IMG/VR virus record: IMGVR_UViG_3300027792_000010
Length of the DNA stretch: 64,000 bases
Strand: one strand, 5' to 3'
Source: a virus
Shown here: positions 12,033-64,000 of the stretch, piece by piece
How the letters are laid out: each line of letters begins with the position of its first letter
Numbering within the stretch: the stretch's first letter is position 1
The notes under the pieces: model-generated
Database searches by the model: none
What the model was told of the DNA's origin: nothing
Seen by the model: only the letters and a program-made list of their open reading frames with translations
Position numbers and translations under genes: made by a program

Positions 12033-12033
12033 T

Positions 12034-22942: not shown

Positions 22943-23590
22943 ATGCCCAAGAATTCTATAGAGTTAGATGTTAATGAAATCTTACAGGTACCTATAGACT
23001 CTATTGGGCCTTCTTTTAGTGATAATAAATTAGAATCACAAACAGAGGCTCTTAAGATCTTTGAAAATGTGGAACCGCCAATAGTAGAGGTTAATAACCC
23101 TGCTAATCTTATAAGTGTGAATTTAGTAAATACCTCGATTCAAAAGATTATAGAAGATCCTACTAAAAATGATATATTGGTAGAATCTATAAAAAATGAT
23201 GATCCTGGTATTACGATACTTAATAATATAATGGTTGAGTTAGCTGAAGAGATAGCCTATATGAAAGCTTGGAGGAATAATAACTTCCAGATTGATAAGG
23301 ATGTAACTTCGGAGATTGCTGAGAAAAGAATAAAAGCACTTAATAACCTTACTATGACGGTAATACAAAAAGCAAAGATAATGAATTCTGGTAATAAAGG
23401 AAAAATAGATTTCTATAGTGAAAACTTTTCAAAGATATTTGAATATTTTTTGAAAGTTGTTCAAGATACTTTTCAAAAAGTAGGTATACCGGAGCAATAC
23501 AGGAATATCTACTTATCAGAATTAGCTAAACAGTTAGATGGATTCGAAAAAACAGCAGAAAAAATATACAGTGGTAAGAAGAAAATATGA
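22943..23590 (+). CDS. Hypothetical protein, possible terminase small subunit
   Basis: Helical protein overlapping the terL start (ATGA); functional guess from position only. Confidence 0.45.
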   Translation: MPKNSIELDVNEILQVPIDSIGPSFSDNKLESQTEALKIFENVEPPIVEVNNPANLISVNLVNTSIQKIIEDPTKNDILVESIKNDDPGITILNNIMVELAEEIAYMKAWRNNNFQIDKDVTSEIAEKRIKALNNLTMTVIQKAKIMNSGNKGKIDFYSENFSKIFEYFLKVVQDTFQKVGIPEQYRNIYLSELAKQLDGFEKTAEKIYSGKKKI

Positions 23591-46862: not shown

Positions 46863-47831
46863 ATGCCCAATCCTAAGGATTATGACAATAAAAATAAATT
46901 CATGCATGATAGTATAAAGACTAATATAGCTGAAGGAAAGAAAAGAAATCAGGCTATAGCTATCTCTATTAGTATGTGGAATAGTAGGAATAAGAAGAAA
47001 AAGGGTAAAAGAAAAACTGCTTCGGAAATACTCAGGGAACTCTCTATGAGAATAGCTTTCACTTTTCTAGGCAGGGAACCAACAGAGGTAGAAAAGAAAA
47101 AGTTGGAACAGGTATTTGATAAGTATCCCCAGGAAGAATTGAAACAGTTATCATCCCTTATAGATAGGTGGTGGTATAATTCTAGCGACTTAATGACTAA
47201 AAATCCTGATAAAATGAAACTTTTTGTTATGTCATTCTACAATGAAGTGCTTAAAGACTTTTTGATGAAGCACTCAGACGATAAAGAATTACAGGAGATT
47301 AAGAAAATTATTACTGATTTAGGAGACCAGAATCAGAGGATACACCCAGCTTTTGTTATTAGGTTGATTAGGGATGCTATAAAGGAAGAAGCTATGGAAA
47401 AAAGGGCCGCAGGTAGTATAGTTTATTATGGATTATTTTTTGTACCCCCAGAGTCTATTAAACTTTTTAATGCGGCACAAAGTGGACCTTTATTAGTTAA
47501 AAAAATTCCTGATCCTCATATAACTTTTGCTTTTAAACCAGCTCCGGGTAAGCTTCCTCCAGAAGATTTATGGGGGGAAAAGTTTGATGTAGTAATAACT
47601 GGTTTGGGTAATGACGGAAATAACCAAGGATATAAAGTAGAGATTCCAGAAGAGTTGAAAAAATACTATTTTAATGATGCTATACCACACATCACGCTAT
47701 CTGTTTCAAACATTGGAAAACCTGTAAATACAAGGAACCTTTTATTTAAAGATATTCCTAATTTCAAGGTACAGGGTATATTTGGATACCACAACGGAGC
47801 AAAAGCAGTATTAGAAGAGAGTCCTAAATGA
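46863..47831 (+). CDS. Multi-module protein with C-terminal 2H phosphoesterase
   Basis: DPHITF and IPHITLS (two HxT motifs). Confidence 0.75.
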   Translation: MPNPKDYDNKNKFMHDSIKTNIAEGKKRNQAIAISISMWNSRNKKKKGKRKTASEILRELSMRIAFTFLGREPTEVEKKKLEQVFDKYPQEELKQLSSLIDRWWYNSSDLMTKNPDKMKLFVMSFYNEVLKDFLMKHSDDKELQEIKKIITDLGDQNQRIHPAFVIRLIRDAIKEEAMEKRAAGSIVYYGLFFVPPESIKLFNAAQSGPLLVKKIPDPHITFAFKPAPGKLPPEDLWGEKFDVVITGLGNDGNNQGYKVEIPEELKKYYFNDAIPHITLSVSNIGKPVNTRNLLFKDIPNFKVQGIFGYHNGAKAVLEESPK

Positions 47832-48403
47832 AGATATCCATATCACACAAGATAAGATACAACGCTATGAGGTTAGCAAAAAAAGGAGCTAACTATTCAA
47901 AGTCTAGCTTACAATACGCTCTTCCAGAAGAGACTGCTAAAAGGATACTAAAGTGGTCAAAGGATAATATACCTGATGAAGAATTGTATACTGAAGAAGA
48001 GGATAAGGGAAGAGAAGATGAAATACATATAACGATCTTCTATGGAATATTGGATGAAGATTCAGGCTCTACAGTTAAGGTTTTAGAAGATCACAATATA
48101 AAGTCTTTCCCTGTTCAACTTTCCACAGTTACTGCCTTCCAGAATAAGCCTGAATATGATGTTCTTAAAGTAGATATAGAGTCATCAGAACTCCATAAGA
48201 TTCATAAGCTTATAGAGAGATACTTGGATACTAAGAATGACTTTCCAGAATATAAACCCCATCTTACCTTAGCATATTTGAAAAAAGGATATGCTGATAA
48301 GTACATAGGGAAAAAAGATTTTCAGGGTATTAGTGTGATTGCGGAGTCTGTGGAGTTTTCTTCTAAGAACGGCACAAAAACGAATATCAAATTAAAAAAG
48401 TGA
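47828..48403 (+). CDS. 2H phosphoesterase (2'-5' RNA ligase / Acb1-like)
   Basis: EIHITIFYG and YKPHLTLAY. Confidence 0.85.
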   Translation: MKISISHKIRYNAMRLAKKGANYSKSSLQYALPEETAKRILKWSKDNIPDEELYTEEEDKGREDEIHITIFYGILDEDSGSTVKVLEDHNIKSFPVQLSTVTAFQNKPEYDVLKVDIESSELHKIHKLIERYLDTKNDFPEYKPHLTLAYLKKGYADKYIGKKDFQGISVIAESVEFSSKNGTKTNIKLKK

Positions 48404-51335: not shown

Positions 51336-51583
51336 GCGGGGCAGTTAAGTTAGGTTTTAGTTTCATGGAGATTAAAGATAAGATAGTCGGGTTTGTGTCT
51401 GCTCATCCAACTGTTATGAAAGCTCTTATTCTCGCAACACACAGTGATATCACCTTTGATTACATACCTGAAGGATTAGGGTTTATTAGGACAGCCTATC
51501 TTATGTTTAAATTTGGACGTTCAAATGAGATAGTCTTTATTGATCAAGATAAAACAGAAAAATTGATTATTACTTTAAAGTAA
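51296..51583 (+). CDS. Hypothetical protein
   Basis: 95-aa ORF, 40-nt overlap with the previous gene. Confidence 0.55.
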   Translation: MEVLRAEWEAKDISGAVKLGFSFMEIKDKIVGFVSAHPTVMKALILATHSDITFDYIPEGLGFIRTAYLMFKFGRSNEIVFIDQDKTEKLIITLK

Positions 51584-51602
51584 GATACCCAAATAGTACA
51601 TT
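51574..51602 (+). promoter_or_regulatory. Class I promoter TTTAAA-N17-TACATT
   Basis: Exact motif heading the FmdB-like and glycosyltransferase genes. Confidence 0.7.
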
Positions 51603-51628
51603 ATTTTATATAAAATAAGGAGGTAGCT

Positions 51629-52075
51629 ATGCCCCGGTACGATTATAGATGTAATGAGTGTGGGACCATCTTTGAGATTATCCACTCTATCAAAGAAACA
51701 CCCATTCTTCAATGCCAAGAATGTGAATCTAAGGAATCTCTTGAGAGATTAATTTCTCAGAATTTTGGCGGCTTTATATTTAAGGGTCATAAGACTGAAT
51801 CAATGAATTGGAAAGAAAAGAGAGTTCGTCATAAAAAGAACGCAGAATTAGAAGTGAAGCAGATAGAAAAGTGGAGCGGTACAAATGGTAAACTTGTACC
51901 TAATATAGGTGGGACTCCTTTTGATAACTGGAGAGATGCTGCAGTGGCGGCTAAAGAATCAAAGTTAGATCCGACAGGGTTCCAGAAGAAAGCAGAAGAA
52001 TCTAAACACTTAAATGCTTTTGGGATAGATGATAGAAAGTGGAAAGAAGCTAAGAAGAAGAGAGATGAAGCTTAA
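51629..52075 (+). CDS. FmdB-family Zn-ribbon protein
   Basis: MPRYDYRCNECGTIFE...CQECES...RLIS....FIFKG. Confidence 0.85.
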   Translation: MPRYDYRCNECGTIFEIIHSIKETPILQCQECESKESLERLISQNFGGFIFKGHKTESMNWKEKRVRHKKNAELEVKQIEKWSGTNGKLVPNIGGTPFDNWRDAAVAAKESKLDPTGFQKKAEESKHLNAFGIDDRKWKEAKKKRDEA

Positions 52076-52117
52076 TAAGCTCTCATAATAGATTAAAATT
52101 ATATAGATGGAGATAAT

Positions 52118-53821
52118 ATGTCAAACCTGAAAAAAGGTCTTTCTTTATGTGTCATAGTGGGCCCTGGAGAAGCTAAAGATTTAGATAGGCTTCTAAGTTC
52201 GTGTACCCCAAAAGATAAGCCTCAATTTTTTGACGAAATTTGTATAACCCACGCTACTAAGGAAAATGATCAGGAAGTTATATCAGTTGCAAATAAATAT
52301 ACTAGTAACGTGTCTTTTTTCAAATGGCGAAACGATTTTAGCGCTGCCCGTAACTATAACTTCGATAAAGCAACCTGTTCTCACATACTTTGGCTTGATG
52401 CAGATGACGTTATAAAACCTGATAATTATGATAAGCTATTAGCTATTAAAGATAGTATTTTCTCAAAAGACCTTATCCTTCTTACCTATGTATATCATCA
52501 CGATGAAAATGATAATCCTGTAGTTGTTTTACCTAGGGAGAGGATAGTTAGGAACTGTGGGGAAATACGTTGGCATGATCCTATTCATGAATATCTTCCT
52601 ATGTTCAATCATTTCAAGATGGAGCAGTATAGCGAGATAGCTATCGATCACTATCGCTCAAAGCCTTTTAACCCAGAGCGTAATCTTTCCATTCTTGCTG
52701 AGGAATATAAAAAGTCTAATTGTTCTGGTAGGACTAAATTCTACTATGGTAAAGAATTATTCGATATACAGAGGTACATAGAAGCTCTTCCTGTTTTAGA
52801 AGATTACTTATCTAAGGATAATGACGATTTTGTAGATAATAAGTGTGTCGCCTGTATTAAACTCTCTACTTATTACTATGTGCAGAAGAACATAGATGCT
52901 TGTAGAAACTACGCCATGAAGGGTATGCGTTTTAATCCTAATTATGCAGAAAACTATGTAACTATGGGTGATACCTATTCTGATGATAATAAGATAGATA
53001 CCGCAATTGAATATTACAAAGAAGCAAAAACAAAAAAATTAGTAGGGGGGATGTCTCAGCTTGTCGATTATTACGGATTCATTCCATCTTATAGATTAGC
53101 GGTTATGTTCGCAAAGAAAAAGGAGTTTAGAGAAGCTATTAGATACATGGAAGAGGCTATGGCTTTAAAACCACAGCATGAACAGCTTATCAAACTTCAT
53201 CGAGACCTAAAGAGTGAGTTTGATTCTACGAGTAAGGTAAAGTTACTAGATGAGTCCTCGTTGAAGAAGATTACAGATTTTCTTAAAGAAAATAATTTTA
53301 TAATTAATGTAGAGGATAATAACTCAGACTTTGCACGATTAAAAATTACTAGGGTTAAGAATATCAGTGTGGCTTGGATGATTCCTTACATTAATATAGA
53401 TGATCCTGCCACACGCATAAGAAGGGTAAATATTCATGGACTTCTTGCAACAAAAAATATCAAAACTCAAATTCTGGCTAACCTCATTACGAACTATAAT
53501 ACTAAAACTCCAATGGAGGTACGGAACTCTGTCGGAGATGCTAATATTGCTATTTTCTCTTCTTTTACTCCGACTGATGTGGAAATAATCAAGCACTTTA
53601 AGGGTGTCGGGATCAAAGTTATATTTGACCTTGCTGAGGCTATTTTTGATTTCCCTGGGGTATCTGAAATTCTTAAGATGGTTGATTTAGTGGTGTGCTG
53701 CTCCACAAAGCTTCAGGATATGTGCATAGAGCGAGGAATCACGAAGACGGCTATAATAAAGGACGCTGTAGAAGAAACTTCCTTTGATACTCCTCATCAG
53801 TATATACGTGATATGGAATAA
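52118..53821 (+). CDS. GT2 glycosyltransferase + TPR + N-terminal lobe of a GT-B domain
   Basis: LSLCVIV, WRNDFSAARN, LWLDADD, IHEYL; TPR helices; C-terminal KVIFDLAE...DLVVCCSTKL...IKDAVE. Confidence 0.88.
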   Translation: MSNLKKGLSLCVIVGPGEAKDLDRLLSSCTPKDKPQFFDEICITHATKENDQEVISVANKYTSNVSFFKWRNDFSAARNYNFDKATCSHILWLDADDVIKPDNYDKLLAIKDSIFSKDLILLTYVYHHDENDNPVVVLPRERIVRNCGEIRWHDPIHEYLPMFNHFKMEQYSEIAIDHYRSKPFNPERNLSILAEEYKKSNCSGRTKFYYGKELFDIQRYIEALPVLEDYLSKDNDDFVDNKCVACIKLSTYYYVQKNIDACRNYAMKGMRFNPNYAENYVTMGDTYSDDNKIDTAIEYYKEAKTKKLVGGMSQLVDYYGFIPSYRLAVMFAKKKEFREAIRYMEEAMALKPQHEQLIKLHRDLKSEFDSTSKVKLLDESSLKKITDFLKENNFIINVEDNNSDFARLKITRVKNISVAWMIPYINIDDPATRIRRVNIHGLLATKNIKTQILANLITNYNTKTPMEVRNSVGDANIAIFSSFTPTDVEIIKHFKGVGIKVIFDLAEAIFDFPGVSEILKMVDLVVCCSTKLQDMCIERGITKTAIIKDAVEETSFDTPHQYIRDME

Positions 53822-53889
53822 TTAATTGTATATTTCAATAGAGATGATTAGTTATATAACATATAGATAAAAAAGAGAGGCTATATAAT

Positions 53890-56800
53890 ATGAAAGAGTT
53901 AAAAGCAGGTTTTTTTGGATGCGGTGGAAATTCCTTTCTTGTGACCGACTATTTGAGAAAAACTATAGAAGATGCAGGATATAAATTAATTGTTTGTAGT
54001 GAGTGGGACAATGCGGATGTAAAGTGGGGGTTAAACACATGGAAAGCAGCGATGAATGACTGTGATGTCGTATTATGCCCTCAGAGAGTTGAGGTACAAG
54101 CTGCCAAATCAAATGTGAAGGTTACAACGGCTATGGCCCTTGGTATGCCTGTTATTGCTAGTCGTATAAAGTCTTATGAAGAAGTTATAAGGCACGGAGA
54201 AAATGGGTACATCTGTGACAGTATGGATGATTGGTCTAAGGCACTTATAGAATTAAAGGACCCTGAAAAAAGGAAACAGGTAGGAACTGCAGCAAAAAAT
54301 TCTATAGGGCAGTACACTCAGGATTATATATCTACGCAGTGGATAACAACCTTTAATAAGATTTTGTCTGAAGAGATAAAAGAAGTTAATTCTGAGCCTA
54401 TGGTTTCTGAGCTGAAATCAAGAGACTTAATAGACATAATTATTCCTAACTATCAGAATCTTGATTATCTAAAAATGTGTCTTACTTCTATTAGGTTGAA
54501 CACTACGCATCCTTATAACCTAATTATTTCTGATGCCGGAAGCGGCGAAGAGGTATGGGGCTATCTAAGAACATTACAGGGCATCACAGTTCTTGGAAGC
54601 CCTACCCAAAGAAAGACTTATTCTGAAGCTTGTAATTCAGGTATAGAGGCTTCTAATACTAAGTACCTTGTTATCCTTAACTCAGATGTTATAGTATCTT
54701 CAGGATGGCTTACAAACCTTGTGGATAAGATGGATAGCGTAGAGAGACTCGCTGCTTGTGGTGTTCTTTCGAACTGTGATCGTGGTTGGTTATTCAGAGC
54801 GCCTGAGGACACTGATCCGAGGTTGAGTCAGCTTCCTGTATACCCTATGACTCTTATGAAGTCTGGTGTAAATCTTCATCCGGGTATGAAGAAGGATGAG
54901 ATAGAACCTCATATTGAGGAACTGTATAAATTTATGGAGGACTCAAATAAGGCTAACAAGGGTAAATTTGTTAGACAGTCTTGGGTAGCAGGTTATGCCA
55001 CTATCTATGCTAGAACAGCTATCAATGAAGTAGGGTTATTTGACACTCAGTATAAGAACGGTTGTGAAGATTCAGATCTTTGTTTGAGACTTGCTAAGAG
55101 TTATTTCTCTATGGGTCAGGCTATTGATTCTTTTGTATTCCATTTTGGTGGTGTTACTAGAACTACCTATCAAGGTGAAAATAAAGAAGTATATGATAAA
55201 GAAGATATGGATAATCATATAAAGTACCGTACTAAGTGGGCTAAACAAAGAGTTTGGATATACACAGGACCTGCTCACGAGCCTTGGGATAAAGCTAAGG
55301 TAGATGCAGGCATGGCAGGATCAGAAACTTGGGCAACATATTTGGGCGAGGCTTTTGCTCGTAAAGGGTATGACGTTAGAATCTACAACGATTTGAATAT
55401 AGAAGATAAAGCACTGCCTAAGCTGGAGCCTGTATATGTAGATAACGAGTTAGTAGGGGCTGTAACGTACAGACACTATACAAATATGTATGAAGATTTG
55501 AAGTATGACCATATCGATTACTTTATTAGTTCGAGGACAGTACAGCCGTTTTTAAATAATGTACATTCTTGTAAAAAATTTGTAATGGTGCATGATATTT
55601 GGTTATCTAATGATCCTAATTATGATTTGCAGGCATGGCAGGTATTCAAGTATGCTTATTTGAGTGAGTGGCATAAGAATTTTTTGATCCATCATCATAA
55701 AATGCCCTCTGAAAAAATGTTTTTGACTGGAAACGGTGTTGTGCAGGATCTCTATAAAGATGTAGATTTATACACAAAGAAAAATAAGATTGTGTATAGC
55801 TCCAGTCCAGATAGAGGTTTATACCAGTTACTACAGATGTTCCCAGCAATTAAGAAAGAAGTCCCCGATTTGGAACTTGTGGTAGGGTATGGGTTTTTTA
55901 ACTGGAAATCATTTGCGAGGCAGAGAGGTGATACTGCTTCTATTGCTTTGATGGAAAAGATAGAAGGATTGATGAATCAACCAGGGGTAACTTATCTTGA
56001 TAGGGTTGATAAGAAAACACTTGCTTACCATCAGATGGAAGCTAAAGTATGGGTAATGCCTACATGGTTTAGTGAAACTTTCTGCTGTCACCCTGATAAT
56101 GAGATTGTGACTGATAAAGGTTTTAAACGAATAGTTGATCTAACTATGACTGATAAAGTTTTGACGCATAAAGGAAGATTTAGAAGAATTGAGAAAATTC
56201 TTTCACGTAAGGTAAATGAGGAGTTATTGGGTCTAATAATAAAAAACCATACAGCAGATATTGGGTATTATACCCCAGAGCACCCAATACTTAGAATTAC
56301 GTCAAAAGTTGCTAATAAAATTAAAAGAAATAAGGAGATGATAAAGGAACAGGGTATTATATCTGATTGGGTTTCAATCAAAGATATCCATGTTGGGGAC
56401 TATGTTTGTTTACCTACTATTAAAGAAAGTACCCCAGTAAAATATTATGAACTTATATCTGATATGAAAGATATAAATAGAAACTACAGAGTATACGGTA
56501 ATAATATCATGACTAGAAAAGATAGCAGGTATAAGACTATACCATCAAAAATATTAATGAACGAAGAATTTGCTAGATTTTTGGGTCTATACTTCTCTGA
56601 GGGATCTTTTAGTGGTGGCTGTATAAAGTTTTCTTTTCATAAGAAAGAAGAAGCATATATTTCTTTTGTGAGAGAGTACATTAAAAATACTTTTGGTTAC
56701 GAAACTAAAGTATCAACTAAAAATAACTGTTCAATAGTTTCATGCTACTGTAATTCTTTGGGGGAGTGGCTAAAAAGAATATTTGGGAGAGAAGCCTCAA

Positions 56801-57519
56801 AGAAAGATGTACCTCATTTTGTGTTTATGCAAAGTTATGACTTCATCAAATCTTTTATTAAAGGGGTTTTTGAGGGCGATGGTAGTAAGAATGCTAATGA
56901 GTATAAAATAGATATGGCGACTAAGCGTGGTATAATGAGTTTAAAATTATTATGCTCTAAAATAGGATTACACCCTAGTTTTAGAAGAACTAAGCATGGG
57001 GATGATGGAAATCTTGATTATTACGCTCTTGGACTAAGTAGTAGTCTGTGGTCTAAAATTTTCGATGAAAAACAAAAAGATAAAACTTATGAAGTATTTT
57101 TAGAATATGACGGTCAGGTATATTATCGTATAAAAAATATTAATAGGAAACAATATGAAGGCTATGTGTATAATTTAGAGGTAGAGGAAGATAATTCATA
57201 TGTATCCAATTTTGTAGCAGTACATAATTGCATCACAGCGGTCGAGAACGGATTAGCTAAGAACGCTCTATTAAGTACAGATTTTGCAGGATTGTCAACA
57301 ACAGTAGGGGATTCAGGTATCCTATTACCCTATGATCCTCAGCTTACGAGGGATGAAGATTACCCTAAGGATTACTCTGATAGATTTATATCTGAATCTA
57401 TAAGACTATTTAAGGATGAAAGTTATAGAAAAGAATGGGCTAATAAAGCTTATAATAAGATGAAAGAATATACCTGGGATAATATAGCTGAAGGTTGGAT
57501 TAAGCAATTTAAAGCTTAA
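53890..57519 (+). CDS. Multidomain glycosyltransferase (GT-B C-lobe + GT2 + GT4), intein-containing
   Basis: KSNVKVTTAMALGMPVIAS; IIIPNY...ILNSDV...EDSDLC; YSSSPDRGL; after splicing, ETFCITAVE is the GT4 E-x7-E motif. Confidence 0.9.
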   Translation: MKELKAGFFGCGGNSFLVTDYLRKTIEDAGYKLIVCSEWDNADVKWGLNTWKAAMNDCDVVLCPQRVEVQAAKSNVKVTTAMALGMPVIASRIKSYEEVIRHGENGYICDSMDDWSKALIELKDPEKRKQVGTAAKNSIGQYTQDYISTQWITTFNKILSEEIKEVNSEPMVSELKSRDLIDIIIPNYQNLDYLKMCLTSIRLNTTHPYNLIISDAGSGEEVWGYLRTLQGITVLGSPTQRKTYSEACNSGIEASNTKYLVILNSDVIVSSGWLTNLVDKMDSVERLAACGVLSNCDRGWLFRAPEDTDPRLSQLPVYPMTLMKSGVNLHPGMKKDEIEPHIEELYKFMEDSNKANKGKFVRQSWVAGYATIYARTAINEVGLFDTQYKNGCEDSDLCLRLAKSYFSMGQAIDSFVFHFGGVTRTTYQGENKEVYDKEDMDNHIKYRTKWAKQRVWIYTGPAHEPWDKAKVDAGMAGSETWATYLGEAFARKGYDVRIYNDLNIEDKALPKLEPVYVDNELVGAVTYRHYTNMYEDLKYDHIDYFISSRTVQPFLNNVHSCKKFVMVHDIWLSNDPNYDLQAWQVFKYAYLSEWHKNFLIHHHKMPSEKMFLTGNGVVQDLYKDVDLYTKKNKIVYSSSPDRGLYQLLQMFPAIKKEVPDLELVVGYGFFNWKSFARQRGDTASIALMEKIEGLMNQPGVTYLDRVDKKTLAYHQMEAKVWVMPTWFSETFCCHPDNEIVTDKGFKRIVDLTMTDKVLTHKGRFRRIEKILSRKVNEELLGLIIKNHTADIGYYTPEHPILRITSKVANKIKRNKEMIKEQGIISDWVSIKDIHVGDYVCLPTIKESTPVKYYELISDMKDINRNYRVYGNNIMTRKDSRYKTIPSKILMNEEFARFLGLYFSEGSFSGGCIKFSFHKKEEAYISFVREYIKNTFGYETKVSTKNNCSIVSCYCNSLGEWLKRIFGREASKKDVPHFVFMQSYDFIKSFIKGVFEGDGSKNANEYKIDMATKRGIMSLKLLCSKIGLHPSFRRTKHGDDGNLDYYALGLSSSLWSKIFDEKQKDKTYEVFLEYDGQVYYRIKNINRKQYEGYVYNLEVEEDNSYVSNFVAVHNCITAVENGLAKNALLSTDFAGLSTTVGDSGILLPYDPQLTRDEDYPKDYSDRFISESIRLFKDESYRKEWANKAYNKMKEYTWDNIAEGWIKQFKA
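56083..57228 (+). mobile_element. Intein (382 aa) with LAGLIDADG endonuclease in the GT4 EX7E motif
   Basis: ETF|CCHPDN...VYNLEVEEDNSYVSNFVAVHN|CITAVE; FLGLYFSEGS and FIKGVFEGDGS. Confidence 0.93.
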
Positions 57520-57545
57520 ATAGGTTATAGTATAAAAAACGGATG

Positions 57546-57575
57546 AAAGCCTCTTGGGTAACCAAGGGGCTTTTT
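57546..57575 (+). terminator. Intrinsic terminator ending the glycosyltransferase operon
   Basis: AAAGCCTCTTGG-GTAA-CCAAGGGGCTTT-TT. Confidence 0.85.
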
Positions 57576-57581
57576 GTTTTG

Positions 57582-57595
57582 ATAATCTTTTAATA
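57582..57595 (+). promoter_or_regulatory. Class II (putative late) promoter
   Basis: ATAATCTTTTAATA directly after the terminator. Confidence 0.7.
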
Positions 57596-57636
57596 AAGGT
57601 ACGGTAGGTAAATGAGTTTCTTTTTTGGAGGTATAT

Positions 57637-58086
57637 ATGAGTGCCCCTGCGATTCAAGTAGCTGTTAGTGATGAGTTAGTGAAAATATTTTGGGATATAG
57701 ATACATCAAATACGTATAGAGGTTTTAATCTTTACTATTCTCTTACCGATGCTACTATGGCATCACCTACTGTGCAGGGGAAAGAGATACCTAATGTCCC
57801 GAGTACTACATATAGCAAGAGTCAGGTCATATACACGTTTAGGAGAAGTGATATAGGAGCAGGTATTAATCAGCCTTTTTATCTTAGATTAAGAGGTGTG
57901 AGTCAAGCCGGGGTAGAAGATACTGCAACACCGGGGCCTATAAAGTACCTTCCTAGTTATTCTGAAAAAGCTCCTATGGTAAAACAGATGATGTATGCCT
58001 ATGACCCTACAGATAATGTATACAGAAAAGTAAAAGTAGTGCAGGATACAGGTAATGAATCCGGTAAACTTGATACTACAACTTAA
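57637..58086 (+). CDS. Putative Ig/FN3-like virion protein
   Basis: VKIFWD...GFNLYYS...YLRLRGVS FN3-like pattern; ATG 57637 behind GGAGG. Confidence 0.5.
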   Translation: MSAPAIQVAVSDELVKIFWDIDTSNTYRGFNLYYSLTDATMASPTVQGKEIPNVPSTTYSKSQVIYTFRRSDIGAGINQPFYLRLRGVSQAGVEDTATPGPIKYLPSYSEKAPMVKQMMYAYDPTDNVYRKVKVVQDTGNESGKLDTTT

Positions 58087-58095
58087 GAGATGGTA

Positions 58096-58109
58096 ATAAT
58101 CTTTTAATA
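58096..58109 (+). promoter_or_regulatory. Class II (putative late) promoter
   Basis: ATAATCTTTTAATA upstream of 58189. Confidence 0.7.
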
Positions 58110-58188
58110 TAAGAGTATAAGTAATATGCTCTTATATAAGAGCTTGTAAATAGATTTAGCAAAGTTCACATTTTAAGGAGGAATTACA

Positions 58189-58620
58189 ATGGCTAATCGT
58201 CTAAAAATCGAGTATAAGGGAAGCAACATAGGTAAGATATATCTTAGCGATGTTGGTAAAAGATATGGTCTTGGTGGAGGGCAAGAGGGTGACTATGGTA
58301 CATCAGGCCAAGATCTATATATGATTTGGGGCGAGACAATTGTTTTAGACCTGACTGGGGAAGTTTTAAGAAGTATGACTGCTGGTGTTCTTAAGTTTTT
58401 CACTACAGCTTCTAGCTCAACAGCTTTTACAACTAACGGTGCTCCATTAACTCTAACTGAAGGTTCTTATACCTCTGCTGATGAGTATCCAAGAAGAGAC
58501 CTTGGTGCTACAGGTGGTACAAAATTCTCGGATGCGTATCTTGCCATTCTTGCTAATGACAAATACGCTCCTACAGGTGCTGCTGGCGCGACTGGTGTAT
58601 ATGTTGGAAACTCGTTCTAA
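58189..58620 (+). CDS. Putative virion structural protein
   Basis: Strong ribosome-binding site; G/T/A-rich; GATG motifs. Confidence 0.6.
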   Translation: MANRLKIEYKGSNIGKIYLSDVGKRYGLGGGQEGDYGTSGQDLYMIWGETIVLDLTGEVLRSMTAGVLKFFTTASSSTAFTTNGAPLTLTEGSYTSADEYPRRDLGATGGTKFSDAYLAILANDKYAPTGAAGATGVYVGNSF

Positions 58621-58635
58621 GTGACGGTCTTTTTA

Positions 58636-58664
58636 AGAGTAGCTCAGAAATTCTGGGCTACTCT
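58636..58664. terminator. Long intergenic hairpin (possible terminator or stabiliser)
   Basis: AGAGTAGCTCAGAA/TTCTGGGCTACTCT inverted repeat. Confidence 0.5.
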
Positions 58665-58696
58665 AATCATCATAGATTAGATAAAGGTATAACAAA

Positions 58697-58981
58697 ATGA
58701 CTATAAATAGTATACATGGAGATCTGATCCACACAGAAGAGGGTGTAAAAACCTGTGACTTATATCTTGCAGCATTCTTTGTTTCTGCTGGATGCCCAAT
58801 AAAAAAGACGTATAAAGACCCAAAGAGAGTCTATTTTTTGTTTGAAAACCCAGACATGATCGAAAGGCTGAGAGAGGACTATTTTACAAGAAGATCGAAT
58901 GTCATAGCTCTAACATATGCAGACAACATAAAGTCTCTCAAAAGCCTGTGTGCAAGTATTACAGATAATCTAAAGAGGTAA
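58697..58981 (+). CDS. DUF5659-like small protein
   Basis: TCDLYLAAFF...G....RVYFLFE pattern (from memory). Confidence 0.55.
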   Translation: MTINSIHGDLIHTEEGVKTCDLYLAAFFVSAGCPIKKTYKDPKRVYFLFENPDMIERLREDYFTRRSNVIALTYADNIKSLKSLCASITDNLKR

Positions 58982-58984
58982 AAA

Positions 58985-59197
58985 GTGGCAGGATTATACG
59001 ATACTTTTCAGGGGAGTATAGGCACTGTATCCCCAGTGTTTGGTCAATATAAGCAACTTATGGGTATTGACCTTGATATCGGAATATCCGGTATAAATGG
59101 TCTTACTGGAGCTGGAACACTACAGCCATATAATGTATGGGTGGGTATAACAGGGATACAGGGAAGTAGTCAAGTACATTCAAAGTGGGAATATTAA
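58985..59197 (+). CDS. Small Gly-rich protein with GxTG motifs
   Basis: GTG start; GLTGAG and GITGIQG. Confidence 0.55.
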   Translation: MAGLYDTFQGSIGTVSPVFGQYKQLMGIDLDIGISGINGLTGAGTLQPYNVWVGITGIQGSSQVHSKWEY

Positions 59198-59198
59198 T

Positions 59199-59684
59199 AT
59201 GTTAAGAGTCTCGGCTATTCAGGCTATGAAGCATATAGCAGCAAGTAACTTCAAATTAGGAACTGTTGTTTTTAACGATTTTGAGGGTATTAATGAGCTT
59301 CATAAGCAGAAGGCTGTAGAAGAAGACGGAGAGATAGATTTAGATACTATTAATCAGTTTGACTTTTGGGCTGATCTTAGTATCAAATACGAAGGCAACC
59401 CTCCTGAAAGCTATAGAGTTTTGAATTCCATCCTAATGGACTGGGTGGATGATAATGAGCAGAATCTAAAAAAAATCATAAATCCACGATTGAAAAAATT
59501 CCTACAAGAAAAATATAGCGATATTGATTCCAGTGAGTTAGACGAGAACTTTGATGACTTCATTTGGGAAGATCAAGTAGATTATATGCCAGAGATAAAT
59601 GAAGAGGATAAGATAGTAGATTTCAAATTAGAACTAATACTTGAAATAGAAGAAGTAGAAGAAGATCTCGATGAGGATGCTTAA
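59199..59684 (+). CDS. Acidic hypothetical protein
   Basis: 161-aa D/E-rich ORF. Confidence 0.65.
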   Translation: MLRVSAIQAMKHIAASNFKLGTVVFNDFEGINELHKQKAVEEDGEIDLDTINQFDFWADLSIKYEGNPPESYRVLNSILMDWVDDNEQNLKKIINPRLKKFLQEKYSDIDSSELDENFDDFIWEDQVDYMPEINEEDKIVDFKLELILEIEEVEEDLDEDA

Positions 59685-59773
59685 AAATATAAGCACTCAA
59701 GTTAATAGGTATGATAATATGCCGTACCGCAGGATATAATATAGGTTTCAATTCCATTTTAAAAGCGGTATTT

Positions 59774-59806
59774 AAAAGCTGTGACAGAAATGTCTCAGCT
59801 TTTTTT
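59774..59806 (+). terminator. Intrinsic terminator
   Basis: AAAAGCTGTGACA-GAAA-TGTCTCAGCTTTT-TTT. Confidence 0.85.
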
Positions 59807-59810
59807 GTTT

Positions 59811-59824
59811 ATAATCTATTAATC
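59811..59824 (+). promoter_or_regulatory. Class II promoter (1 mismatch)
   Basis: ATAATCTATTAATC directly after the terminator, upstream of 59862. Confidence 0.6.
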
Positions 59825-59861
59825 TTTTATTAATTATATCTGAACTATAGAAGGGTATATT

Positions 59862-62378
59862 ATGCTCTATTTGGGATATACATTAACGGATAGTGATTTG
59901 GTCGCCAGTTTTATTGACGATACTAATAACTATTTTGACCCGTACTTTGTATCATACACTATAAAGTATATAGATGATATAGGAAATACTTTAATAGTTG
60001 GACAGGAAGATAGAGTACCGATACATATAGCTACTGGAAGATACAGACCAGCATTTACCATACCTACAAACTGGAGAATAGGGTATTACTTTGTAATATG
60101 GAAGTTTAGGAATAAACTTGGATGCCCTATCTTTTATAAAAGAGAGAAATTCCAGATTGTTACTGCTGATTCTATTACAGGTATTGTTAATCTTGAGAAT
60201 ATAGATTTTCACAATCCTTACTATTCTATAACCGGAATAAACTATACAGGGATACAGTGCCCTCAAAAGCCAGCGGTAGCTATAGGGGATACAGGTGTAA
60301 TAGGTCCTACAGGACCTATGGGTATTACAGGCGCAGCAGCTTTTTTTATTCAGAAGAATGCCAGATACGTCGATTTGAATGGGTCTGATACTACAGGTAA
60401 CGGCTCTTCTACAAATCCATACAGAACAATAAAGTTTGCTTGTGACTCTATTTTAGATTCCGGGAGAAATAATCCTTACAGCATATTTGTTAATGCCGGA
60501 TTATATGAAGAAAATCCATTTTTAGTCCCAGAACAAGTAGGTATCTTTTCTATGGACGAGATGGTTATTCTTGTAGCAAATGACCCTGATACTGATTTTA
60601 TAACATTATCTAATTTTTCTAACTTACAATCTATGGAGATTAGAGGTCCTATTAATGCCACTGCCATAGTATCTATAGATGTATTGCCAGTAATGAATGG
60701 TATATACATAAGCTCAGGTAAAAGAGGTATAAGAATATCTGGTTCTGGAGCTAGTGATAGCGAACTTGTTGAAACATATATAGATTTAGATGTAGAAGAA
60801 GGTATTAGTATTGAAGATGGAGTAAATAATGTAGTGTTCAGAGGTTTATTTAGTTATGCTTATAATTATGCACTTAGGATAAGTGGTGGATCAAAAATTA
60901 TTTTAAATAATTTTGATATACAAAATACTGTAACTGGTATAATAGTAGAATCTACAGGTACAGATGTATCATTAAAAGTAGGTAGGATAAGTGGATCAGA
61001 AGTAGGTATTAAAACAGATGATAGTTCAACCTCAACTTTAGTAGCAGTTATTTTTGAGTCCTGCAATGTTGACTTAGTACAAATAGGTGGTTCATATGTT
61101 TATGTAGACTCTTCTACTATACATATTAATTTATGCATAGTAGAAGACTGGGATAGGATAATAGGGCAGTTTTTTAATATAGATGATTTTGGTTCTGGAC
61201 TAAAAATACAAGGTAGGATGGATGCAGGTTCCCCAGAACTTGGAGCTATAGCAACTATAGGCGAGGGCTCTAGCGAATCCAGAGGGTTAAAAGTTTTTGA
61301 GTACAATGCCTTAACTGATACTTTTGTAGACGTATCAAGTAGCGCCAGACAAATAGGGGGGCCTACATTTACTTTTCCTTCGAATGAAGTAAACTCGGCG
61401 GTCTATGTATCGACTGAGATAAAAGATGCTAATAGCTTATACTATAAAATAAAAGGAATAAGAACAAATACCCTTACTGCCGCAGTATTAGGTACAGGAA
61501 ACATAGTATCTGAGTATTGGAATGGCTCTACATGGTATCCTTTTAATACTATGTCTTTTGATACTGTAAATTTTTATACTTATGGTAATAATCTTTTTCA
61601 AAGAGTAACAGATAGTAATACATCTGAAATGATACATTTTTCTTGCACTATAGAAGAAGATTGGACGGATAGTGACCCGATGCTATCAGGGACTTATAAG
61701 TATTGGATTAGATTCAGAATAGCAAGCCCTATTAGTGTTTTACCGATTTTTGATTATTATAGAATTATTACAAGTAGAACAAGAATAGAAAAAGACGGCT
61801 TTATGACATTTAGTGGTAAAGCTAGAAGTATAAGAAGAGCGCAGTATGATATTGATTCCTCATCTAGTATAAAAAATCTACCAGCAACAGTAAATCTATA
61901 TAGAGGCGACATAGGAGTCAGTAGGTATCAAAATAGCTTTACTAAAGGCGACCTATGTAATGGAGGTTATTCCTTTTTTGTTCCGTTTGACTTGGATACA
62001 AGCTGTCCCTTAATTGTTAAAGTTGTTTATATGGTATTAGATGACTCGGCTGGGGATGTAGAAATAGTTTTTAAGTGGGATATAACGTCTATAAACTCTG
62101 ATGTGTATAATACTATACAATCCCCGACTCCAACAGAAAGTATCGTTTCTATTCCAATTTCTATACCCTCAAACTCATCCTTTAAGCAAATGTTTTTTAC
62201 TGGATATGTACCCATACCTACTTCGGTCCCATATGCTGGAGACGAGTCTAATTTATTGTGGGGCGAAATGAGTAGAGATGGGAGATACTCTAATAGTGCT
62301 GATACGTACCAAGGAGATTTTAACATTATACAGATATCTATAGAATACGTAGCATGGAATAACGGGAGACACATATAA
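59862..62378 (+). CDS. Virion spike/fibre-associated protein with parallel beta-helix-like region
   Basis: YVDLNGSDTTGNGSSTNPYRTIKFA...VNAGLY.E beta-helix cap; short collagen stretch GDTGVIGPTGPMGITG. Confidence 0.6.
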   Translation: MLYLGYTLTDSDLVASFIDDTNNYFDPYFVSYTIKYIDDIGNTLIVGQEDRVPIHIATGRYRPAFTIPTNWRIGYYFVIWKFRNKLGCPIFYKREKFQIVTADSITGIVNLENIDFHNPYYSITGINYTGIQCPQKPAVAIGDTGVIGPTGPMGITGAAAFFIQKNARYVDLNGSDTTGNGSSTNPYRTIKFACDSILDSGRNNPYSIFVNAGLYEENPFLVPEQVGIFSMDEMVILVANDPDTDFITLSNFSNLQSMEIRGPINATAIVSIDVLPVMNGIYISSGKRGIRISGSGASDSELVETYIDLDVEEGISIEDGVNNVVFRGLFSYAYNYALRISGGSKIILNNFDIQNTVTGIIVESTGTDVSLKVGRISGSEVGIKTDDSSTSTLVAVIFESCNVDLVQIGGSYVYVDSSTIHINLCIVEDWDRIIGQFFNIDDFGSGLKIQGRMDAGSPELGAIATIGEGSSESRGLKVFEYNALTDTFVDVSSSARQIGGPTFTFPSNEVNSAVYVSTEIKDANSLYYKIKGIRTNTLTAAVLGTGNIVSEYWNGSTWYPFNTMSFDTVNFYTYGNNLFQRVTDSNTSEMIHFSCTIEEDWTDSDPMLSGTYKYWIRFRIASPISVLPIFDYYRIITSRTRIEKDGFMTFSGKARSIRRAQYDIDSSSSIKNLPATVNLYRGDIGVSRYQNSFTKGDLCNGGYSFFVPFDLDTSCPLIVKVVYMVLDDSAGDVEIVFKWDITSINSDVYNTIQSPTPTESIVSIPISIPSNSSFKQMFFTGYVPIPTSVPYAGDESNLLWGEMSRDGRYSNSADTYQGDFNIIQISIEYVAWNNGRHI

Positions 62379-64000
62379 TGTCACTATTTGAAAATAATAC
62401 AAATAGGTATTTAAGAACTTTAGGGTATAATATAGTAGATACGAGTTCTACTCCAATTACATTATATAAAAATAGCGTTCAATTTATAATTTTAGAGGGT
62501 AATATATCTCAGTCTATTATATTTGATGATGCTAGAGAGATATATGCTGGAAAAGTTTTTGAAATTACTAATAACAGTATAGAAGATTCTAATATCCAAA
62601 ATTCTCTATCTATTATACTTTACACATTAAAACCTAGTACCTCTGCTCGTTTTATCCTTAATGATAATACTACCCAAGGCGGAGTCTGGGTTATTACTAC
62701 CGTAGGAGGCGAGACTGGCTCTTTAGGTATGACTGGTATACAAGGAATAACGGGATTATTCGGAGGTACTGGAGCACAAGGAGTCACAGGTCCGCAAGGT
62801 TTAACTGGAGTAGGATATATAGGATCTGATGGTCACACGGGGCCACAGGGTGTTACCGGAATAGGGGGCACTTATGGTTTTACAGGACTACAGGGAGTCA
62901 CAGGTGTAGGATTTATAGGTACCGACGGAGAAACAGGAGTACAAGGAGAAACAGGATTATTAGGGGTTACTGGAGTTCAAGGAAATACAGGAATACAAGG
63001 ACATTTAGGAAGTACAGGTGAAATAGGTGCTCAAGGTATAACTGGGTTAGCAGGCCATACTGGAGTAAGAGGGTTTACAGGATTAGGTTATACAGGCATT
63101 CAAGGTATCACAGGTCTCATCGGACAAACAGGTCCCCAAGGGTTTACAGGATTAGGTTACACAGGCATTCAAGGTATAACTGGGTTAGTAGGCCATACAG
63201 GTCCTCAAGGGTTTACAGGATTAGGCTATACAGGTCTCATCGGACAAACAGGTCCCCAAGGGTTTACAGGATTAGGTTATACGGGTATTCAAGGTATCAC
63301 AGGTCTCATCGGACAAACAGGTCCCCAAGGGTTTACAGGATTAGGTTATACAGGCACTCAAGGTATAACTGGGTTAGTAGGTCATACAGGTCCCCAAGGG
63401 TTTACAGGATTAGGCTATACAGGCATTCAAGGTATAACAGGTCTCATCGGACAAACTGGAGTAAGAGGGTTTACTGGATTAGGTGTAACTGGATTACAGG
63501 GACAAACCGGAATACCAGGACCTACGGGATTTCAAGGATTAACTGGTTCTCAAGGACAGACAGGGCCTTTTGGAGTCGCAGGGTCAACTGGTTCCCCTGG
63601 AGTACAGGGACTAACAGGTAATCAGGGTATACAAGGACACACAGGATTTGTAGGATTAACAGGATATCAGGGTATAACTGGGAATCCGGGAAATAGCCCT
63701 ACAGGACCTATAGGAGCTACAGGAGTAAGAGGATTTACTGGGTTGGGTGTAACAGGGGTACAAGGTCTTACTGGGTCACAGGGTACTCAAGGAGCTACTG
63801 GGTTGGGATCTACGGGTCTTATCGGTAGCACCGGAATACAGGGTTATACAGGATTAGGTATTACAGGTATCCAAGGTATCCAAGGAAATACAGGGCTTAT
63901 AGGTAATCAAGGACAAACAGGACCTATAGGAAGTACTGGAATTCAGGGCATCCAAGGAGTTCAAGGAATTCAAGGAATTCAAGGTGATACAGGTACTCAA
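62378..64000 (+). CDS. Collagen-like fibre protein, Thr-rich G-X-T repeats (partial, runs off the right edge; not in ORF track)
   Basis: ATG overlaps the previous TAA (TAATG). Open for 541 codons: MSLFENNTNRY..., then over 400 aa of G-X-T/G-X-Q triplets. Confidence 0.92.
   Translation, partial: MSLFENNTNRYLRTLGYNIVDTSSTPITLYKNSVQFIILEGNISQSIIFDDAREIYAGKVFEITNNSIEDSNIQNSLSIILYTLKPSTSARFILNDNTTQGGVWVITTVGGETGSLGMTGIQGITGLFGGTGAQGVTGPQGLTGVGYIGSDGHTGPQGVTGIGGTYGFTGLQGVTGVGFIGTDGETGVQGETGLLGVTGVQGNTGIQGHLGSTGEIGAQGITGLAGHTGVRGFTGLGYTGIQGITGLIGQTGPQGFTGLGYTGIQGITGLVGHTGPQGFTGLGYTGLIGQTGPQGFTGLGYTGIQGITGLIGQTGPQGFTGLGYTGTQGITGLVGHTGPQGFTGLGYTGIQGITGLIGQTGVRGFTGLGVTGLQGQTGIPGPTGFQGLTGSQGQTGPFGVAGSTGSPGVQGLTGNQGIQGHTGFVGLTGYQGITGNPGNSPTGPIGATGVRGFTGLGVTGVQGLTGSQGTQGATGLGSTGLIGSTGIQGYTGLGITGIQGIQGNTGLIGNQGQTGPIGSTGIQGIQGVQGIQGIQGDTGTQ
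63062..63490 (+). repeat. 69-nt (23-aa) imperfect tandem repeat within the collagen gene
   Basis: GPQ-GFT-GL-GYT-GIQ-GIT-GLI-GQT; seven GFT-GL-G(Y/V)T cores, one unit lacking 18 nt. Confidence 0.9.

Follow-up and report, generated by a model that had tools for sequence, protein, structure and literature searches.

The window, meaning the whole 64,000-nucleotide stretch of DNA that we analysed, carries a glycosyltransferase (GT) unit with genes for a zinc-ribbon protein and for a pair of soluble proteins bearing four GT domains. Across the two proteins the domain order is GT2–TPR–(GT-B N-lobe), then (GT-B C-lobe)–GT2–GT4. The unit, the genes that follow it and one gene further upstream are as follows.

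51574-51602, + strand: promoter-like motif TTTAAA-N17-TACATT, preceding the GT unit.
51629-52075, + strand: FmdB-like Zn-ribbon protein, 148 amino acids, first gene of the GT unit (Pfam Zn_ribbon_8, 49.9 bits).
52118-53821, + strand: GT protein 1, 567 amino acids, in three parts (Pfam GT2 and TPR_2).
53822-53889, + strand: 68-nucleotide spacer where the GT-B is split, containing the ribosome-binding site AGAGAGG; the following ORF is in a different frame.
53890-57519, + strand: GT protein 2, 1209 amino acids (Pfam Glycos_transf_1, Glycos_transf_2, Intein_splicing and LAGLIDADG_3).
56083-57228, + strand: LAGLIDADG intein, 382 amino acids (residues 732-1113; Intein_splicing and LAGLIDADG_3), inside the GT4 EX7E motif.
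57545-57585, + strand: intrinsic terminator closing the GT unit (stem 57545-57574 plus T-run; 13 pairs, 6 of them GC).
57625-58086, + strand: conserved protein, 153 amino acids; homologues come after the GT or Zn-ribbon gene in relatives.
58189-58620, + strand: conserved protein, 143 amino acids, with two G-x-T-G motifs; candidate extra target.
58697-58981, + strand: DUF5659 protein, 94 amino acids (Pfam DUF5659, 34.7 bits; 58-81% identity in relatives).
58985-59197, + strand: protein of 70 amino acids with G-L-T-G and G-I-T-G-I-Q; candidate extra target.
59199-59684, + strand: acidic protein, 161 amino acids, conserved in the block (45-55% identity in relatives).
59862-62378, + strand: fibre or spike protein, 838 amino acids (phrog_4577 tail protein).
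62378-64000+, + strand: collagen-like fibre protein, its gene cut by the window end; a 110-residue N-domain, then 135 or more G-X-Y triplets; put forward as the main substrate.
26859-30965, + strand: protein of 1368 amino acids encoded between the terminase and portal genes; possible further target.

An earlier note on this DNA had described a unit running from 51574 to a terminator and encoding about four GT domains, one of them split; the Pfam domains, promoter-like motif and terminator bear this out. TTTAAA-N17-TAYATT has six exact copies in the window, the one at 51574 included, against 0.16 expected by shuffling, and we term the latter a putative, promoter-like motif, its score falling below the threshold of a generic sigma-70 scan. 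The stem at 57545-57574 is the strongest terminator-like site within 51–64 kb. The Zn-ribbon gene at the start of the unit, on which the earlier note was silent, has homologues that precede the GT gene in most relatives.

GT protein 1 consists of a GT2 domain (residues ~8-250, with the DXD motif D94-A-D96-D97), a TPR region (~204-372) and the Rossmann N-lobe of the split GT-B (~394-546). Its closest solved relatives by sequence (phmmer against the PDB) are SunS (7e-10, residues 12-247) and GmaR (1e-9), both peptide or protein glycosyltransferases, and Foldseek searches with an AF2 model (pLDDT 87) place SunS/ThuS first (1.8e-16), followed by SPINDLY/OGT. Judged by sequence and predicted fold, the GT2–TPR module is by family membership a SunS/GmaR-type protein glycosyltransferase; the placement of the phage clade within the GT family tree has a support of only 32. 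SunS and ThuS, the S-glycosyltransferases of glycocins (SPbeta prophage, Bacillus), are the best solved matches in sequence and structure to residues ~8-370, and likewise join a GT-A domain to a substrate-binding domain of helical, TPR-like form, with a polypeptide as substrate. However, SunS glycosylates Cys of a small bacteriocin precursor, its identity to the phage module is only 15-20%, and a Cys-rich precursor peptide is absent here.

The GT-B is split at an identical point in several relatives of 42-49% identity, and in fused relatives GT protein 1 runs straight into the C-lobe; in one relative (L010) an HNH endonuclease gene occupies the gap. A pair prediction for the two lobes gave an ipSAE of 0.87 versus 0.00 for the best control, the mark used being one attained by 58 of the 80 solved complexes and by 2 of the 110 mismatched pairs. 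At least 83% of contacts agreed between runs, with a partner pLDDT of at least 88. The model supports binding of the lobes to each other, although the pass may stem from resemblance to solved single-chain GT-B folds.

GT protein 2 begins with the C-lobe (residues 1-165; Pfam Glycos_transf_1 at 43-137, Glycos_transf_1 positions 76-171) and continues with a second GT2 domain (~178-450; Glycos_transf_2 at 183-307) and a GT4-type GT-B (~470-731 and 1114-1209). In the intein-less relative L005, the last 360 residues of its counterpart match Glycos_transf_1 (32.7 bits). The intein, which did not feature in the earlier finding, has Cys1, a terminal His-Asn and a +1 Cys, and is inserted at E-TF/CITAV-E (the stroke marks the insertion point). 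Intein-less relatives read W-F-x-E-T-F-C-I-T-A-V-E without interruption, and L002, L003, L008 and L010 carry an intein at the matching site.

Polysaccharide pathways typically use GT2 and GT4 domains, and the weak NCBIfam hits (EPS and mycofactocin GTs) all score far below the cut-offs. Both would fit four domains whose product is not a glycoprotein but a polysaccharide, free or lipid-linked, or a small-molecule glycoside. We regard this as very unlikely, given that no polymerase, flippase or priming transferase was seen in the scanned window ORFs, that a search for transmembrane segments in both GT proteins found none, and that the TPR domain and SunS/SgtA affinity suggest a protein acceptor. 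Glycosylation of phage DNA, as in T4 glucosyl-hmC or 5hmC glycan hypermodification, is disfavoured and, in our estimate, highly improbable. Multi-GT clusters with GT-A and GT-B folds that hypermodify phage DNA do exist, but these adjoin genes for C5-methyltransferase/5mYOX or thymidylate-synthase-like proteins (bioRxiv 10.1101/2023.12.21.572611), neither of which was found among the Pfam-scanned ORFs of the window, where the methyltransferase is of the N6/N4 type. In five relatives, of which one is rated 98% complete, no ThyA-family gene was found, nor, in a search run without a positive control, any Tet_JBP match; moreover, the first module, with its TPR domain, resembles protein GTs rather than T4 BGT or JGT.

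In the collagen-like ORF, Thr occupies the Y position in 54 of the 135 visible triplets (40%), the large share claimed earlier, and Gln in 39 (29%); Pro is scarce, at 11 X and 3 Y positions only. The ORF has 64 G-x-T-G motifs against 6.6 expected, with periodic G-L-G-Y-T-G breaks, and hits NCBIfam collagen-like adhesin profiles at 1.5e-53, below the profile cut-offs. The fibre or spike protein encoded upstream has an N-terminal anchor domain, which paralogues in relatives share, a short collagen stretch (residues 142-159) with three G-x-T-G (0.45 expected) and then a large body; its N-terminal 110 residues are matched by several ORFs of relatives, among them the start of the 1546-residue collagen fibre of L001. 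The domain of the 57625-58086 protein, in turn, heads a 543-residue protein adjoining collagen genes in L097.

The earlier note had also proposed that G-x-T-G is common to the products at 58189, 58985 and 59862 and recurs in 26859-30965, and both proposals hold when the counts are set beside those expected. The protein at 58985 has two motifs (0.16 expected), both present in 8 of 9 aligned homologues; that at 58189 also has two (0.37 expected, a marginal excess), and at least 90% of the rows of its homologue alignment keep T129, G130, G133, T135 and G136. The motifs of these two proteins are kept in 8-10 homologues at 33-68% identity. The 1368-residue protein has 11 isolated copies (residues 315-680) against 0.99 expected, a count reached in 0 of 2000 shuffles. 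Together these four ORFs hold 18 of the 20 G-x-T-G motifs outside the collagen ORF. Neither the 1368-residue protein nor the acidic protein matched anything in family profile searches.

Gene neighbourhoods link the first module to collagen-like proteins. Among the 80 best bacterial loci, mostly from Clostridia/Bacillota and encoding proteins of ~360 residues, the immediate neighbour is a Thr-rich collagen-like gene in 31, with Thr mostly making up 0.5-0.98 of the Y positions. At the level of single genes, collagen-like ones number 32 among the 131 that are adjacent versus 4 among the 519 others in those loci (odds ratio 42, P = 6e-20). Flagellin genes were sought beside these bacterial relatives and none was found, so the analogy to flagellin glycosylation drawn earlier is less apt than one to SgtA. 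This Clostridioides difficile protein of 358 residues combines GT-A and TPR, is encoded directly upstream of bclA3 and adds beta-O-GlcNAc in vitro to Thr of collagen-repeat peptides (PMC7157674). The comparison rests on size, domains and gene context rather than on the sequence of SgtA itself: both systems have a soluble, GT2-like GT-A followed by TPR repeats and a gene near one for a Thr-rich collagen-like protein, and the bacterial relatives share the size of SgtA. The phage module differs in being fused to three further GT domains over two polypeptides. In place of G-P-T, the repeats on the phage side are G-x-T-G, with a hydrophobic residue at X and a high Gln content, and the putative substrate is a fibre of the virion instead of a spore layer.

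Large phages often carry collagen-like genes. That of the window begins 4.9 kb after the GT gene and does not adjoin it, and L001 and L002 have the same gene order. Collagen genes abut the GT gene in L012, L014, L015 and L096 (upstream, same strand), L017-L019 (divergent) and L063, but lie tens of kb away in roughly half of the relatives, including L003, L005, L007 and L009. Seven of the ten larger relative contigs searched have collagen genes, the three without a match being fragments with completeness ratings of 14-29%. The clade yielded no GT-negative relative, all relatives found keeping the GT gene, so GT/collagen co-occurrence has no contrast there. A more distant phage GT2-TPR-GT4 family is surrounded, in 39 loci, by genes for head, tail and structural proteins (in a complete 42.6-kb podovirus genome it comes after the capsid gene with one small ORF between), with collagen neighbours in only 2-4 of 53 loci and no G-x-T-G excess in its neighbours (ratio 0.74 versus 1.21 for other ORFs).

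The wide spacing of GT and collagen genes in many clade members, and the position of the distant family beside head and tail genes, would suit a GT line that glycosylates mainly non-collagen virion proteins (capsid, tail, the 1368-residue protein), with the collagen fibres as incidental neighbours. Mycobacteriophages offer a precedent by description: GTs encoded in or near the structural module put O-glycans on virion proteins, the targets being C-termini of capsid and tail-tube subunits and not collagen repeats (Freeman et al. 2023, as cited in PMC12619734). We think this unlikely for the present phage: in bacteria, relatives of the first module are paired specifically with collagen-like genes, several rearranged phage relatives have collagen genes abutting the GT gene, and G-x-T-G was looked for and not found in the window's capsid, portal and terminase proteins.

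A large uncultured phage probably uses its GT machine to coat its own collagen-like fibres with sugars, as read from sequence. We favour, with moderate confidence, a phage-encoded cytoplasmic protein O-glycosylation line acting on these fibres. The domain architecture, intein site, first module's family, gene neighbourhoods and predicted lobe–lobe interface come out of the analysis; we infer what the acceptor and the sugars are, in which order and when the enzymes act, and any benefit to the phage. The two soluble polypeptides would join through the split GT-B lobes into one four-enzyme complex. At the N terminus of the first, the SgtA/SunS-type GT2–TPR module would grip the protein substrate with its TPR part and add the first sugar, through its GT-A part, to Thr in G-x-T(-G) repeats, mainly of the Pro-poor, Thr-rich collagen-like fibre; further virion proteins with G-x-T-G may be modified too. 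Once reassembled, the GT-B would then lengthen the sugar together with the second GT2 and the GT4, the GT4 becoming active only after the intein splices out and restores EX7E. All four domains would contribute to the oligosaccharide, and the enzymes would be produced ahead of their substrates. If so, glycosylation may stabilize the triple helix, or provide a shield or adhesin surface. The comparative support for O-glycosylation by GT2–TPR of Thr in the phage's own G-x-T collagen, as the earlier note had put forward, is strong on the side of SunS/GmaR family membership, the bacterial collagen neighbours and the abutting phage relatives; the half of relatives with a far-off collagen gene speak against it.

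TarP and TarS, which appear among the structural matches far below SunS, are wall teichoic acid glycosyltransferases, and TarP is prophage-encoded; phage glycosyltransferases that alter host serotype are well known. Such serotype-changing enzymes also appear in PMC12619734, and the promoter-like motif of the GT unit, of a kind common to non-structural units, would likewise suit enzymes that act on host molecules during infection, whether proteins (those of the surface or collagen-like ones) or polymers of the wall, teichoic acid for instance, and so block superinfection or change the cell. We consider this quite improbable: membrane segments and Gtr-type partners were not found, the GT gene is placed within the virion module and no relative found lacks it, the closest family is paired with a collagen substrate whose gene is adjacent, and the contigs reach a very large size (as much as 467 kb).

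Our literature search found no paper on an SgtA-like GT with a collagen system in a phage. For fibre glycosylation, other virus and spore systems provide partial parallels. Mimivirus L230 glycosylates virus-encoded, Pro-poor collagen-like proteins, but it hydroxylates Lys and adds Glc to hydroxylysine with a GLT25D1-like GT and a PLOD-like domain, in a eukaryotic virus (PMC9614988); its chemistry and enzyme family are other than those of the phage system. BclA of Bacillus anthracis is a spore protein with G-P-T repeats whose glycan genes are scattered, with no fused multi-GT enzyme. Nucleotide-sugar genes were not found among the window ORFs scanned. In two relatives, glycan-tailoring genes travel with the system: L013 has a methyltransferase fused to the GT, and in L097 genes for a sugar-nucleotide epimerase/dehydratase and an FkbM methyltransferase adjoin the collagen genes.

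The glycosyltransferase (GT) genes lie in a 202,460-bp uncultured phage contig (GC content about 35%). The first 23 kb of the window holds replication genes, which are followed by genes for terminase, a 1,368-amino-acid protein, portal, protease and capsid. TTTAAA-N17-TAYATT, a promoter-like motif, has six exact copies in the window (0.16 expected). One of them opens the stretch that holds the GT genes, and the strongest intrinsic terminator of the region closes it:

51574–51602, promoter-like motif TTTAAA-N17-TACATT (start of the stretch)
51629–52075, Zn-ribbon gene
52118–53821, GT protein 1 (567 amino acids)
53890–57519, GT protein 2 (1,209 amino acids)
56083–57228, LAGLIDADG intein, residues 732–1113 of GT protein 2 (Intein_splicing, 42.9 bits; LAGLIDADG_3, 25.6 bits)
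57545–57574, intrinsic terminator with T-run (end of the stretch)

Downstream of the terminator are five small conserved genes, then a fibre or spike protein of 838 amino acids, then a collagen-like protein that leaves the window. Megablast found no cultured phage similar at the DNA level, and tblastn matches were limited to inteins and uncultured spring phages. A related contig of 466,729 bp (G008, 467 kb, the contig of locus L009), which carries a 2,562-amino-acid collagen open reading frame (ORF), is 98% complete by CheckV and relatives of 140–260 kb are 30–55% complete; the 202-kb contig may therefore represent less than half of its genome. At 46863–48403, ORF boundaries differ from those of relatives: two ORFs in the window, of 322 and 191 amino acids, stand where relatives have one of about 70–90 and one of about 410–490.

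The two proteins carry four GT domains, as the earlier note had counted: a GT2, a split GT-B, a second GT2 and a GT4. GT protein 1 comprises a GT2 domain, in which the D-x-D-D motif is invariant, followed by a TPR domain and a C-terminal Rossmann lobe. Its GT-A (GT2) domain matches Pfam PF00535 at 30 bits (cut-off of 23.3), with D94, D96 and D97 invariant in 19 relatives, and its TPR region matches TPR_2 at 41 bits and forms helices at residues 190–391 of the AF2 model. No transmembrane segment was found in this protein (maximum KD19 hydropathy of 1.38). GT protein 2 begins with the C-lobe of the GT-B (Glycos_transf_1 profile positions 76–171) and continues with the second GT2 and a GT4-type GT-B. 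The latter has two Rossmann lobes and a C-lobe EX7E motif, which reads E-T-F-C-I-T-A-V-E once the intein is removed; the last 360 amino acids of the related protein at L005 match PF00534 at 32.7 bits (cut-off of 26.4), and that at L017 additionally matches Glyco_transf_4.

In many relatives the four domains form a single ORF of about 1,375 amino acids, and others are split at exactly the inter-lobe point of the window. We do not attribute the split to a sequencing frameshift: several relatives (42–49% identity) are broken at the same position, and the second ORF is preceded by a ribosome-binding site of its own. Complex prediction supports binding of the two lobes, with an ipSAE of 0.87 (best control, 0.00), a level that 58 of 80 solved complexes attain, as do 2 of 110 mismatched pairs; contact agreement between runs was at least 83% and partner pLDDT at least 88, but because single-chain GT-B folds have already been solved, the result may reflect likeness and is not proof. 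One relative (L013:13799–14713) has an extra C-terminal SAM-dependent methyltransferase domain on its four-GT protein (Methyltransf_23, 33 bits), which would fit a methylated sugar.

The best solved sequence relatives of GT protein 1 are SunS (7e-10) and GmaR (1e-9), and a Foldseek structure ranking puts the glycocin GTs SunS and ThuS at the top (1.8e-16), ahead of SPINDLY/OGT, with TarP/TarS after these. These top matches are enzymes that glycosylate polypeptides; that the pathway instead yields a free glycan is very improbable. Among the best 80 bacterial relatives (one genome per species, largely from Clostridia and other Bacillota; protein length about 360 amino acids), the immediate neighbour is collagen-like in 31, with 13 to 150 triplets in which most Y positions are Thr. 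Collagen-like genes account for 32 of 131 adjacent genes versus 4 of 519 other genes at the same loci (odds ratio of 42, P = 6e-20, kinship beyond one genome per species being uncorrected). The placement of GT2–TPR relatives beside Thr-rich collagen genes is a family-level association that holds independently. The neighbours of bacterial relatives without a collagen gene were heterogeneous and included no flagellin, and for this reason we abandon the analogy with GT2–TPR proteins that modify flagellins, drawn in the earlier note, in favour of SgtA. A tree of the GT2–TPR module resolved no bacterial sister group for the phage clade.

SgtA of Clostridioides difficile, a 358-amino-acid GT-A and TPR protein, transfers beta-O-GlcNAc onto Thr of collagen-repeat peptides in vitro (PMC7157674), and in the published arrangement its gene adjoins that of its Thr-rich collagen-like substrate BclA3, as the genes do in those 31 bacterial relatives. 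The first module of the phage line has the architectural features of the SgtA family, SgtA being compared here by its published architecture and context. Adjacency to a candidate substrate gene is seen in some phage relatives and only loosely in the window. By analogy, the proposed phage system would work like SgtA–BclA3. Particular to this phage are the fusion of four GT domains across two proteins, the conserved GT-B split and an intein in a catalytic motif. A clear bacterial instance of the SgtA–BclA-like arrangement occurs in Clostridium oceanicum (L136, 4280–11851), where four collagen-like genes of the G-P-T type (Y = Thr, 0.88–0.98) flank one GT2–TPR gene, two on each side. Two further records, from a Chitinophaga sp. 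(L100) and an Erythrobacter MAG (L138), match the phage protein almost end to end, including the GT-B N-lobe (residues 8–555 and 3–561, respectively); these records might represent prophages or other DNA of phage origin and could hint at hosts.

The candidate substrate in the window follows the pattern of prokaryotic and phage collagen-like proteins, with long G-X-Y repeats after a non-collagen N-domain (the C terminus lies beyond the window). After 110 N-terminal amino acids, the visible collagen part comprises 135 triplets in 14 runs. Thr fills the Y position in 54 of these and Gln in 39; at X, Leu, Ile, Val and Phe predominate, and Pro is infrequent. The ORF shares 48–56% identity with ORFs of relatives, and the collagen ORFs on the contigs of these relatives give matches to Pfam PF01391. 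It contains 64 G-x-T-G motifs versus 6.6 expected, and 18 of the 20 motifs elsewhere in the window ORFs fall within the four proteins in which the earlier note had seen them: the 1,368-amino-acid protein (26859), two small proteins of 143 (58189) and 70 (58985) amino acids, and the 838-amino-acid fibre or spike protein (59862), which also carries a short collagen stretch. The motifs of the two small proteins are conserved in homologues at 33–68% identity; the predicted fold of the larger of the two was of low confidence (pLDDT 51), and the ESM Atlas yielded nothing for it. In the closest relative (L001), a 1,546-amino-acid collagen fibre (L180:504–5144) carries 180 G-x-T-G motifs and has an N-terminal anchor domain that resembles that of the 59862 protein and a globular C-terminal head of about 115 amino acids; the collagen protein of the window has a different N-domain.

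On this sequence evidence, the GT proteins probably constitute an O-glycosylation line for virion fibres. What the earlier note had observed stands; its interpretation, that the phage glycosylates its own Thr-rich collagen-like fibres, is supported in part: the first module is SunS/SgtA-like and has relatives beside Thr-rich collagen genes, and the adjacency of GT and collagen genes in the window is loose. A more far-reaching version is a tentative possibility: G-x-T-G might be a general sequon of the clade, with the four-enzyme line coating the collagen fibres and the 1,368-, 143- and 70-amino-acid proteins with a phage-specified oligosaccharide to give a glycan-clad virion, and with completion of the glycan depending on intein splicing in the catalytic motif of the last enzyme and on assembly of the split enzyme.

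Relatives were found at 72 loci in IMG/VR, with the four-GT clade formed by L001–L019 and L096. The gene order of the window, in which the collagen gene starts 4.9 kb downstream of the GT gene in the same orientation, is common to L001 and L002. Collagen genes lie directly upstream of the GT gene in L012, L014, L015 and L096, a giant collagen gene is divergent from it in L017–L019, and a collagen gene also adjoins it in L063; in L003, L005, L007 and L009 they are far away. Of the larger relative contigs searched, most have collagen genes, and no collagen match came from short fragments or from the 135-kb contig of L010. We looked for relatives without the GT gene by way of the adjacent 578-amino-acid protein (13 loci) and found none, as 12 are in contigs with the GT gene and the thirteenth, L096, also has it; with the GT gene in every relative found via this structural neighbour, there is no GT-negative contrast set. 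That the enzymes modify the host surface or other host targets is quite unlikely, given that the GTs have no membrane segments and that their gene lies within the virion module of every relative found. About 150 kb from the GT gene of L005, the same contig has two large collagen genes (L097:7446–16127) with two ORFs between them, one of which encodes an RCC1-repeat protein. A few small ORFs further on come an NAD-dependent sugar-nucleotide epimerase/dehydratase (224 bits) and a methyltransferase of the FkbM type, a second case in which collagen fibres and glycan genes are linked.

Around 50 further viral loci encode a simpler GT2–TPR–GT4 fusion, which is surrounded there by head, tail and structural genes. 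Collagen genes are rare there, and the neighbours of this distant family show no excess of G-x-T-G (0.74 of expectation, versus 1.21 for other ORFs). That the line of our phage acts mainly on virion proteins other than collagen is unlikely but a real alternative, and such targets could also be additional to collagen instead of taking its place. In a complete 42.6-kb spring podovirus (L083, MW202524.1; 1656–11978), the order is major capsid gene, one small ORF, the fusion, two additional GTs, a hyaluronan-synthase-like gene and two methyltransferases, which makes a compact candidate cluster for virion glycosylation in a small genome.

Glycosylation of phage DNA, as by T4 AGT and BGT or the clusters for glycan hypermodification of 5hmC, is barely conceivable here. 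Known clusters adjoin genes for C5-methyltransferase/5mYOX or ThyA-like enzymes, whereas the scanned window ORFs (64 kb of the 202-kb contig) include no hydroxymethyl- or hydroxy-pyrimidine route and the methyltransferase of the window is of the N6/N4 type. The ThyA family (PF00303) is absent from five relatives, one of them rated 98% complete, and Tet_JBP (PF12851) had no match in relatives, in a search with no positive control.

If virion fibres are indeed the substrate, a widespread lineage of uncultured tailed phages (contigs of up to 467 kb) produces glycoprotein fibres of its own and applies chemistry that Clostridia use on spore collagens. For viruses this has until now been shown only as capsid and tail glycans of mycobacteriophage virions (Freeman et al. 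2023, as cited in PMC12619734) and as the glucosylation of hydroxylysine in Mimivirus collagen by L230 (PMC9614988); no paper that we found brings together phages, collagen-like tail fibres and O-glycosylation. A glycan coat on the fibres would bear on host recognition, on the stability of Pro-poor triple helices and on the visibility of the phage to immune systems and sugar-binding defences. For the glyco-engineering of collagen-like proteins, a soluble enzyme that fuses four GTs and has a short, defined acceptor motif would also be a compact tool.

The GT gene also carries selfish elements. The putative intein of the window, which the earlier note does not mention, is bounded by C-C-H-P-D-N-E ... 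V-A-V-H-N/C (Cys1, terminal His-Asn and +1 Cys) and has, as judged from its sequence, HINT blocks, the nucleophiles and an endonuclease insert, and is absent from orthologues at the site. It is missing from at least nine relatives and present at the same site in L002, L003, L008 and L010. As W-F-x-E-T-F-C-I-T-A-V-E is unbroken in the intein-less relatives, the intein lies within the catalytic EX7E motif. Another relative, L011 (8570–13834), lacks this intein and has one at a different site of the same gene, exactly at the DXD of the first GT2 (Y-I-M-W/C-L-T-P ... V-T-H-N/C-D-S-D-D), so both insertion sites are catalytic motifs. In L010, the two halves of the split GT-B are 675 nucleotides apart, and this gap contains an HNH endonuclease gene (11641–12117; phrog_374, 8e-44). 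A free-standing homing endonuclease gene may therefore have created the split, and the 68-nucleotide spacer of the window could be a remnant after loss of such a gene. With two intein sites and one HNH endonuclease gene, the four-GT gene of these phages is a repeated target of selfish elements. The terminase large subunit (23587–26844, 1,085 amino acids) and portal (31588–34998, 1,136 amino acids) of the window are likewise oversized, with PHROG matches to an endonuclease family in the former and to the RNR large-subunit family and the intein-associated phrog_21587 and phrog_36001 in the latter, which suggests that both contain inteins; the window would then have at least three.
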